This document shows, piece after piece, positions 10,819 to 13,728 of a stretch of DNA of 64,000 bases (its first letter is position 1; each line of letters opens with the position of its first letter). Below the pieces are notes generated by a model. That model had not been told where the DNA came from. It made no database searches and worked only from the letters and a program-made list of their open reading frames with translations. A program made the position numbers and the translations under genes. The DNA is from an uncultured Candidatus Saccharibacteria bacterium. Lineage in GTDB: Bacteria > Patescibacteriota > Saccharimonadia > Saccharimonadales > JAGQNJ01. The DNA lies in assembly GCA_964493895.1 (NCBI GenBank), contig CAZBPY010000003.1, forward strand, positions 15,176 to 79,175, in the 5' to 3' direction.

Positions 10819-13728
10819 CTAGCCAACTACGATGTTGAGAATCTTGTCCGGCACGTAAATGACCTTTTTAATGTCTTTGCCGGCAAGGTGCTTACTGACT
10901 TTTTTGTCATTTTTAGCCGCCTCTTCGGCAACCGCCTGATCGCTGCCAGCCGGAAGTTCCAATTGAGCCCGGACTTTACCGTTAATTTGCACCACCACTG
11001 TCACCACGTCGCTAACAAGATATTTCTCGTCCCACTTGGGCCAGTGGCCAACATGAACTGAATCCTCATGGCCTAGCTGGTGCCACAACTCTTCGGCAAT
11101 AAACGGGGCAAACGGAGCCGCGCACATAACGGTTTTTTCCAGACAATCGCGCCAGACTTTGGACTTAGCAATTCCAGCCTCGCCCTTCAGTTTGTAAAAG
11201 TCATTAACCACTGTCATCAGAGCCGAAATTGCCGTGTTATAGCGTTGTTCGTTAATGTCGTCAGTGACCTTATGAATCATTTTGTTTGTAGCTACCAGAA
11301 GCTGCTTCTCTAGGTCTCGGTCAACTTCTTTCTCGAGGGCATCATTAAATTCTTGGACAAGATTCCACAACCGCGACAGAAATCGGAATGTACCCGGCAC
11401 ACCCTGGGGGTCCCAATTGGTACCCAGCTCTAATGGTGCAGCAAACATCAGGTAGGTGCGTAAAGCGTCAGCCCCATACCCTTGATCGATGATCTCTAGC
11501 GGATCAGCCCCGATACCCTTTGATTTGGAAAATGCGCTGCCATCACTAGCTGTAACTTTGCCATTAAACAGGAATTTCTTGAAGGGCTCGGGATCATTAA
11601 TCAAGCCTCGCTTATGGAAAAAACGGGTTACAAACCGAGCATACAACATATGGGCCGTGGCGTGATCAGCTCCATTATAGAAATCCAGGGGCATCCATTT
11701 GTTGACGCGTTTAATGTCGAAGGCTTGTTTGTCATTGTGCGGATCAAAGTAACGCAGCATGTACCAGCTACTGCAAATATAGGTATCTAGGGTATCGGTT
11801 TCTCGTTCAGCCGGGCCGCCGCATTTTGGACATTTAACTTTCAGCCAGTCCTTAGCCCTTGCCAAGGCGCTGCGTCCATCACCGCTCGGCTTGAAATCAG
11901 TCAATTCAGGCAATATAACTGGCAGGTCTTCATCAGGCACCAACACCGGTCCGTCTTTCGGGCAGTTGATAATTGGGATAGGTGCCCCCCAGTATCTTTG
12001 GCGAGATACGCTCCAGTCACGCATCCGATAGTTAGTTACCGATTTAGCTACGCCCTTTAGTTCCAAATCAGACACAATTTTTTCTCTCGCCTCGGAGGCT
12101 TCCATACCGTCATACTCACCAGAATTTATTAATTCACCCTCTCCTTCAATCGATGTGGTTTCTTGTAGCAAGCTCCAGATCATCTTCTGATTGCTTGGCG
12201 TCAAACGATTCATCACCTCAGATTCATCGACCCACACTAAAGAATGTAACTTCTGTTCCCCTTCGTCAATTTTTTCTTGTTGGTCTAAGTTCTCGACAGT
12301 CGCTAATAACCCGTGGCTAATGCTTTTTCGATTCTGATTTTTATGTGAAGCATTGTAGCGAGCGCTAGTAACCCAAGGAGATTGCTTGATAATTTTGACA
12401 TGTTTAAGGCCGGCTTCTTCTTCAATTTCCATGCGTGCCGCATCCTCAGGCGTTTGGCCCTCCTCGATACCTCCCATGATGGCTGTGGTTATTCCTTCCA
12501 GTGTTCCATGCCAATCTAAAATTGCATACTTCCCAGTTGACTCATCACGCAGATGAACAACAACTGTCTGTCTTTCAACCTCTTCTAGACCTGGGGCTGG
12601 TGGATTTGAAGCATCAGGCGCACTTGGCATGACAACTTGTCGCATTGGCAGATCATATTTCTGAGCGAATTCGAAGTCGCGTTCGTCGTGGGCCGGGACG
12701 GCCATAATTGCGCCAGTTCCGTAACTGAGCAAGACATAATCAGCAATCCAGATAGGAATTTTTTCCTGATTGGCCGGATTGATAGCGTAGGCGCCGGTGA
12801 ACACGCCGGTCTTTTCTTTGGCTGCTTGCCTCTCCACTTCGGTTTTCTTAGCCGTGGACTTGATGTAGTCGTCAACTTCTTTTCTGCGCTCATCCGTTGT
12901 AATCTTGGCAACGATGTCGTGTTCGGGGGCGACAACCATAAAGGTAGCTCCAAACAGGGTGTCCGGCCGGGTGGTAAAGACGGTCAAGATCTCGTCGTGG
13001 CCATCGATCTTAAAGTCAATTTCGGCACCCTGGCTACGTCCAATCCAATTCTTCTGAGCCAGCTTGACGCTTTCTGTCCAATCCAGATCGTCAATAGCCT
13101 CTAGCAGCTCGTCGGCGTAATCCGTGATTTTGAAAAACCACTGCTTGACCTCTTTCTTCTCGACCAGCGGATCATCCGGCCCATCATGCCGCCAACATTT
13201 GCCGTCAATAACCTGCTCATTAGCCAACACCGTCTGGCACTTGGTACACCACCACTGCATCCGAGCATCCTGATAAGCCAGCCCGGCTCGATACATTTCA
13301 GAAAAGATCCATTGTGTCCATTTGTAGTAATCCGGTTGGTGGGTAGCAATTTCTTTGGACCAGTCATTGCTCCAGCCCATGGCCTTATACTGTTTGTGAT
13401 AATTCGGAATAATCTGAGCCATTGATTCTTGCGGCGAAATCCCAGCTTTGATGGCGTAATTCTCAGCCGGCAGACCAAAGCTATCCCAGCCCACCGGGTG
13501 ATAACTTTCATAACCCTGCTGCCTCTTGAACCGAGCCAGTACGTCGCTGATGGTGTAGTTCATGGCGTGGCCGATATGAATGCCAGCCCCGCTGGGGTAA
13601 TTGAACATGCTCATAGCAATAAACTTCGGCCTATCCGAATCTAGATCAGCCTTATAAGTTTGATGTTCATCCCAGTATTTCTGCCACTTCGGTTCAATGG
13701 CTTTTGGATCATAGCGTTTCATCGCCAT
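10819..13728 (-). CDS. leuS: Leucine--tRNA ligase carrying a Nudix-like domain insertion of about 150 aa; the true start is probably the second ATG at 13722
   Basis: HIGH motif (HIGHAMNYT), FGLPAEN, the editing-domain end motif [25 protein letters not shown] and FSKSKG (KMSKS) are all present. Residues about 369-530 are an extra domain not present in E. coli LeuRS. Confidence 0.9.
   Translation of the reverse strand: [969 protein letters not shown]

Follow-up and report, generated by a model that had tools for sequence, protein, structure and literature searches.

A Nudix domain inserted within the CP1 editing domain of leucyl-tRNA synthetase in Patescibacteria

Few enzymes are as conserved as the aminoacyl-tRNA synthetases, and their editing domains have been studied intensively both as fidelity devices and as drug targets. 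Canonical bacterial leucyl-tRNA synthetases (LeuRS), represented by the T. thermophilus enzyme (1H3N/2BYT) and the E. coli 4AQ7 family, comprise a catalytic core and CP1, anticodon-binding and C-terminal domains, and carry the editing motifs TTRPDT and AHD within CP1. Archaeal and eukaryotic LeuRS have lineage-specific CP1 insertions, and an IleRS with an inserted GNAT domain (NCBIfam NF040702) likewise carries an extra module on an editing-type class I synthetase; CP1 and its surroundings tolerate insertions in other class Ia synthetases as they do in the LeuRS described here. Nudix hydrolases of polyphosphate-bridged nucleotides, in contrast, are known as single-domain enzymes (the Ap4A hydrolases of Aquifex, 3I7U, and lupin, 1F3Y; CT771; NUDT2; the T. 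thermophilus Ap6A hydrolase Ndx1; RppH; DIPP/DDP1) or, in MutT1/Rv2985, as a free-standing pairing with a histidine phosphatase that hydrolyzes 8-oxo-(d)GTP and diadenosine polyphosphates.

The LeuRS analyzed here shares the domains and editing motifs of the canonical bacterial enzymes, but a 157-residue Nudix segment stands where T. thermophilus LeuRS has an 11-residue CP1 surface loop. It differs from the other class Ia accessory domains in having a Nudix fold, in being exchanged as a cassette, and in occurring in one to three copies at two CP1 sites. Unlike the polyphosphate-nucleotide hydrolases, to which it is 13-22% identical, the insert is embedded in another enzyme.

A Nudix domain in a CP1 surface loop of a complete LeuRS

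Within the window (the whole 64,000-nucleotide stretch of DNA; all features below lie on its minus strand), leuS (10819..13728) encodes a complete bacterial-type LeuRS of 969 amino acids. The open reading frame matched TIGR00396 (leuS_bact) with 971 bits against a cutoff of 548.4, the match falling in two stretches, and also matched PF00133, PF09334, PF13603 and PF08264 in Pfam. Both class I signatures, HIGH (H51-I-G-H54) and FSKSK (residues 733-737), are kept in an alignment of 107 sequences. CP1, including the insert, spans approximately residues 229-567 (12028..13044); these bounds were inferred from the range in T. thermophilus LeuRS, which we take to be residues 224-417. The T-rich editing motif TTRPDT (residues 252-257; 12958..12975) is intact, as is Asp348 of the AHD motif (12685..12687), which occupies an invariant alignment column and is the counterpart of the Asp conserved at the editing site in bacterial LeuRS. 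TTRPDT and AHD were both present in all 124 Nudix-bearing LeuRS examined. Thus, the synthetic and editing motifs of the host enzyme are intact. NCBI demotes Nudix-bearing LeuRS to the name "class I tRNA ligase family protein", a point on which annotation pipelines should be warned.

A first-pass annotation made from the sequence alone had proposed that the editing region of this LeuRS carries a Nudix-fold insert and had placed it after the end of CP1. Alignment to 1H3N paired residues 200-369 with T. thermophilus residues 195-365 and residues 527-613 with 377-463, delimiting an insert proper of residues 370-526 (12151..12621) in which the Nudix domain follows a Pro-rich entry linker and precedes an exit segment, with ~157 residues replacing the loop at T. 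thermophilus residues 366-376. The assignment to the editing region therefore stands, but the insert lies inside CP1 rather than beyond it, with ~40 CP1 residues still to follow. The insert also splits the match to PF13603, the LeuRS editing-domain model, such that residues 226-372 cover model positions 1-146 of 185.

When residues 369-530 (12139..12624) were searched in isolation against Pfam, they matched PF00293 NUDIX with E=7.2e-11 (42.7 bits; gathering cutoff 21.1) and gave NUDIX alone, with no Hint/splicing domain or homing endonuclease. The whole insert modeled confidently as a Nudix fold with short linkers, the fold core covering residues 383-522 (12163..12582), and the predicted models have the alpha/beta/alpha sandwich with the box on a loop-helix-loop that characterizes the family. 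The predicted strands (residues 383-395, 400-406 and 495-500) and helices (427-439 and 502-508) coincided with the beta-strand, box and C-terminal elements that had been picked out from the sequence. AlphaFold2 (AF2) modeled the full LeuRS with a pLDDT of 87.7 and a pTM of 0.74, with pLDDT remaining high through the linkers and both junctions. Taken together, the isolated PF00293 match, the fold models and the comparison with orthologues bear out the proposed insert and show that this segment forms a Nudix domain that folds independently and is set into a CP1 surface loop of a complete LeuRS.

Distribution and exchange of the Nudix cassettes

More than 100 LeuRS orthologues from JGI, ENA, Logan and NCBI assemblies were found to carry a Nudix domain at the same site, as were 14 GTDB species representatives, and all labelled carriers were Patescibacteria. 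The insert is therefore an accessory module typical of, and common in, this group. The first-pass annotation had regarded a lineage-typical CP1 extension of unrelated fold as grounds for abandoning its proposal; the extension is indeed lineage-typical, but its fold is Nudix. A word-indexed search with the insert alone had returned one fragment, but the rarity this suggested was rejected on the strength of a full-length protein search and an exhaustive HMMER search; a profile search of a 5.8-billion set returned mostly fragments. Among the best 150 representatives of the Nudix subfamily, 104 resided in LeuRS, and the subfamily is nearly confined to LeuRS CP1, with a single IleRS host. Our literature search for a Nudix domain in the LeuRS editing region recovered no description, and the first-pass annotation was likewise aware of none, so the arrangement is apparently undescribed.

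The inserts proved far more variable than the enzyme carrying them, with a mean identity to the window copy of 36% compared with 66-84% for the host LeuRS. LeuRS pairs whose flanks were 90-96% identical had inserts that were merely 25-31% identical, with sharp boundaries. Across pairs with flanks at least 78% identical, insert identity was bimodal, falling between 0.68 and 1.0 in 16 pairs and between 0.25 and 0.38 in 20 pairs. In two pairs (P0088/P0086 and P0019/P0007), identity dropped from 90-100% to 10-46% in a region confined to approximately residues 355-535, and the DNA identity profile of L085 versus L086 agreed with these protein boundaries. Since identity was bimodal and the boundaries were sharp, we rejected gradual fast evolution of the insert in favor of discrete replacement. 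The unit of recombination, hereafter the cassette, extends over approximately residues 353-535 (12124..12672; bounds carried to the window by alignment) and comprises the Nudix domain together with the adjoining CP1 helix/strand and the INSG exit. The cassettes formed 85 clusters, and at the divergences sampled the synonymous sites were saturated.

Relatives without the insert were found at 75-93% flank identity, and one LeuRS (P0048) retains a 36-amino-acid deletion relic. The Nudix domain is thus dispensable, since close relatives do without it, and exchangeable, since nearly identical leuS genes have had one divergent cassette replaced by another. Each Nudix-bearing LeuRS carried one to three Nudix copies, arranged where multiple as tandem arrays of two or three that combine different types, and the cassettes occupied two CP1 sites. 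Other, unrelated inserts were also present in the CP1 of relatives. A serine-hydrolase domain is co-inserted in P0097, and the IleRS host (P0246) carries a Nudix domain and a histidine phosphatase that were inserted separately, as opposed to their free-standing combination in MutT1; the window LeuRS has the Nudix domain alone. Outside synthetases, two free-standing proteins (P0280 and P0272, 44% identical to each other) consist of a CP1 remnant plus a Nudix domain, the remnant having lost both elements that bind the tRNA 3' end, the T-rich motif and the Asp. We also looked for host residues that co-vary with the presence of the insert, but the signal traced back to a few lineages without the Nudix domain whose editing sites have degenerated, and was confounded by phylogeny. 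An essential housekeeping gene, otherwise 90-96% identical at the protein level, can therefore host a fast-turnover recombining module of the kind usually linked to surface, defense or mobile genes.

The Nudix box and nearest characterized relatives

The 23-residue Nudix box occupies residues 419-441 (12406..12474), as judged from the translation and from conservation in 102 orthologues. Relative to the consensus Gx5Ex7REUxEExGU, position 7 is Gln (Q425) and position 15 is Met (M433), with the Arg displaced one residue earlier, exactly as the first-pass annotation had described; G1, E16, U17, E19, E20, G22 and U23 are retained, with E434, E437 and E438 forming the Glu triad. The annotation had called the box degenerate and the domain possibly inactive or altered. 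While the box is non-canonical, "degenerate" was too strong, since positions 7 and 15 form a co-varying pair and the metal-binding Glu residues are kept. Indeed, these positions co-varied perfectly across the 102 orthologues (E/R in 63, Q/[M,A,T,N] in 33 and D/K in 4), with 63 having a fully canonical box, and on this comparison the Q425/M433 cassette type appears to be derived, its E7-R15 pair having been swapped jointly rather than eroded.

The Glu triad was invariant in 100-101 of the 102 orthologues, G419 and W499 were at least 98% conserved, and K463 and E491 at least 90%. Downstream of the box, Glu491 (12256..12258) was Glu in 92 and Asp in 8 of the orthologues and may serve as a further metal ligand or as a base. 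The hairpin following the box carries a K463-x2-N466-R467 motif (12328..12342), with K463 present in 96 and N466 in 87 of the 102 sequences, that may have a role in phosphate binding; this motif and the Q/M box variant are the insert subfamily's own when compared with single-domain Nudix hydrolases. In the Q-type cassettes, E434, E437, E438, E491, K463, N466 and R467 were each present in 33 of 33. Because the Q7/M15 pair co-varies and these residues are invariant within the Q type, the window domain would more probably be altered than inactive.

The best PDB profile match of the insert was lupin Ap4A hydrolase (E=2e-12), and its nearest characterized neighbors by sequence and structure appeared to be asymmetric Ap4A/Ap6A hydrolases, MutT1/Rv2985, DIPP/DDP1 and RppH, which act on polyphosphate-bridged nucleotides. 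An aromatic Tyr ~16-18 residues after the box is a hallmark of asymmetric Ap(n)A hydrolases and RppH-like enzymes; position 458, 17 residues after the box, was Tyr in 57 and Phe in 37 of the 102 orthologues, although this is a weak criterion. The cassettes were acidic (mean net charge -5.6; pI below 7 in 92%; -7 for the window copy), in contrast with RppH-like enzymes and the neighboring stand-alone Nudix protein, which are basic. NADH pyrophosphatases (NudC/NUDT12) have an SQPWPFPxS-type motif after the box, and the window sequence KQSPWVTS resembles it and drives a match to NUDT12, the best single-sequence PDB match; this specificity was rejected since positions 450-453 were not conserved among orthologues. 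Membership of a known defense or phage family was likewise rejected, as PADLOC, PHROGs and BFVD gave generic Nudix matches at most for the cassettes; in PADLOC the window insert had no match and relatives matched the generic Nudix model PDC-S07 alone.

Proposed function and alternatives

Since the apparent nearest neighbors act on polyphosphate-bridged nucleotides and the domain is acidic, we propose tentatively, with a probability of about 0.45, that the insert is an accessory pyrophosphohydrolase that is catalytically competent and acts on nucleotides of this kind. The constancy of the Glu triad, E491 and K463/N466 while the rest of the domain diverges to ~25-35% identity would fit a working Mg2+-dependent enzyme, whose likeliest substrates would be small, free Ap(n)A-type compounds, either dinucleoside or nucleoside polyphosphates. 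Such molecules arise as products of aminoacyl-tRNA synthetases when an aminoacyl-adenylate reacts with a nucleotide, so that hydrolysis might take place near the site of formation, with aminoacylation and editing unchanged. The pairing of Nudix and histidine phosphatase in the IleRS host parallels MutT1, which we counted in favor of a small-molecule substrate over RNA. The Q425/M433 type would be expected to have altered kinetics or specificity rather than to be dead. A third catalytic domain within CP1, found across hundreds of Patescibacteria genes, would give a textbook enzyme a new activity, and the insert offers a testable entry to the nucleotide and translation physiology, and possibly the conflict biology, of these ultra-small symbiotic bacteria.

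Two observations sit uneasily with Ap(n)A hydrolysis. A housekeeping role leaves cassette replacement, tandem arrays and the near-exclusive association with LeuRS CP1 unexplained, and the E7Q and R15M changes could lower the activity of the window copy.

Modules that are hypervariable and exchangeable are typically seen in conflict systems, and LeuRS and IleRS are classic antibiotic targets. The insert could instead be an active hydrolase whose substrate is a hostile or immune small molecule that targets class Ia synthetases or translation, for instance a nucleotide antibiotic mimicking an aminoacyl-adenylate or a nucleotide derived from a toxin or from defense, with cassette diversity reflecting an arms race. 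This possibility, which we consider doubtful but worth keeping in view, would account for the discrete replacement between near-identical hosts, the presence/absence polymorphism and the mixed-type arrays. The different hydrolase chemistries in the same region (serine hydrolase in P0097, histidine phosphatase in P0246), the GNAT-bearing IleRS, and the position of the P0280 gene beside CYTH, weak radical-SAM-like and pentapeptide-repeat genes point in the same direction. However, the defense and phage collections returned generic Nudix matches, no toxin or biosynthetic partner was identified within the window, known aminoacyl-adenylate mimics have P-N or S-N linkages that are atypical of Nudix substrates, and natural competence with recombination over conserved flanks could produce the turnover without diversifying selection. 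A broader version, to which we give comparably little credence, is that the Nudix, serine-hydrolase and histidine-phosphatase modules form an unrecognized, exchangeable and conflict-driven protection or repair layer on the CP1 of class Ia synthetases in Patescibacteria. Such a layer may destroy toxic nucleotides directed at synthetases or translation, or reverse toxin-installed tRNA acceptor-end lesions, and recombination may shuffle it between strains like immunity cassettes, inside an essential gene.

That the domain, at least in its Q/M type, is non-catalytic and serves as a ligand-binding sensor or a structural CP1 appendage modulating LeuRS seems unlikely. The window box does lack the canonical E7 and R15, and the confidently modeled linkers suggest rigid docking, but the complete conservation of the triad, E491, K463 and N466 in the Q type is expected for catalysis and needless for a scaffold. 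The near-invariance of the triad across all orthologues, the coupled nature of the E7/R15 change and the fully canonical box of most cassettes argue in the same way for a catalytic domain.

We regard a role in tRNA acceptor-end repair as more improbable still. CP1 presents the 3' end of tRNA-Leu, and grafted hydrolases might extend proofreading to other end lesions, for example with the Nudix domain removing a toxin-installed 3'-pyrophosphate and a histidine phosphatase then removing the 3'-phosphate. ToxSAS toxins add pyrophosphate to the 3'-CCA end of tRNA in a tRNA-specific manner, a modification that a phage hydrolase reverses (PMC11559606), and the nucleotides degraded by Nudix enzymes include 3'-pyrophosphorylated ones such as (p)ppGpp (PMC9293644). 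The near-confinement of the subfamily to LeuRS CP1, the retention of a CP1 remnant even outside a synthetase, the intact editing site of every Nudix-bearing LeuRS and the high linker pLDDT, which suggests a fixed position on CP1, would all be consistent with this role. However, the uniformly acidic cassettes are unlike RNA-binding Nudix enzymes and the basic stand-alone neighbor, the free-standing CP1 remnant has lost its 3'-end-binding residues, our literature search found no report of a Nudix enzyme acting on a tRNA 3' end, and repair of tRNA-Leu alone would restore translation only if the toxin were Leu-specific.

Similarly slim are the chances that the insert is a tolerated passenger, a neutral or selfish insertion spread by recombination that would profit from sitting in an essential, conserved gene without benefiting the cell. 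Its residence is intein-like, in that both occupy one conserved site in an essential gene, are patchy among close relatives and show recurrent gain and loss, here including a deletion relic; its composition differs from that of the host gene (GC3 of 0.40 in the insert and 0.55 in the remainder of leuS), and unrelated inserts also enter CP1 in relatives. Unlike an intein, however, the cassette is not removed from the mature protein, where it forms a folded enzyme domain with catalytic residues under selection. The strict retention of these residues across cassettes otherwise ~25% identical implies selection on enzymatic function, and the free-standing P0280/P0272 family is maintained. An intein or other homing element was rejected outright, since the insert has no Hint domain, splicing motif or endonuclease. 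Finally, although GC and GC3 of the insert are below those of the flanks, an assembly chimera or a reading artefact, the latter of which the first-pass annotation had already argued against, is for practical purposes excluded by an uninterrupted frame through leuS and the insert, an identical protein on a 174.8-kb NCBI contig, the >100 orthologues of the same architecture from four independent sources, the 14 GTDB representatives and the confident model through both junctions.

A stand-alone Nudix gene (9548..10060) lies two genes from leuS in a conserved leuS-nusB-nudix-rnc neighborhood and forms part of the context of the insert rather than of the insert itself. As the first-pass annotation had noted, it has a canonical box, here 23 residues long. 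The protein matched PF00293 with E=1.5e-18 and the Aquifex Ap4A hydrolase 3I7U over its full length (E=1e-15). Since this Ap4A-hydrolase-like gene is conserved near leuS whether or not the insert is present, generic Ap4A clearance has no obvious need of the insert, a further observation against the Ap(n)A reading. The stand-alone protein was also considered as a donor of, or functional substitute for, the insert, but was rejected because it is only 30% identical to the insert, is found next to leuS, at 48-69% identity, irrespective of whether the locus has the insert, and belongs to a different, basic Ap4A-hydrolase-like group (net charge +10).

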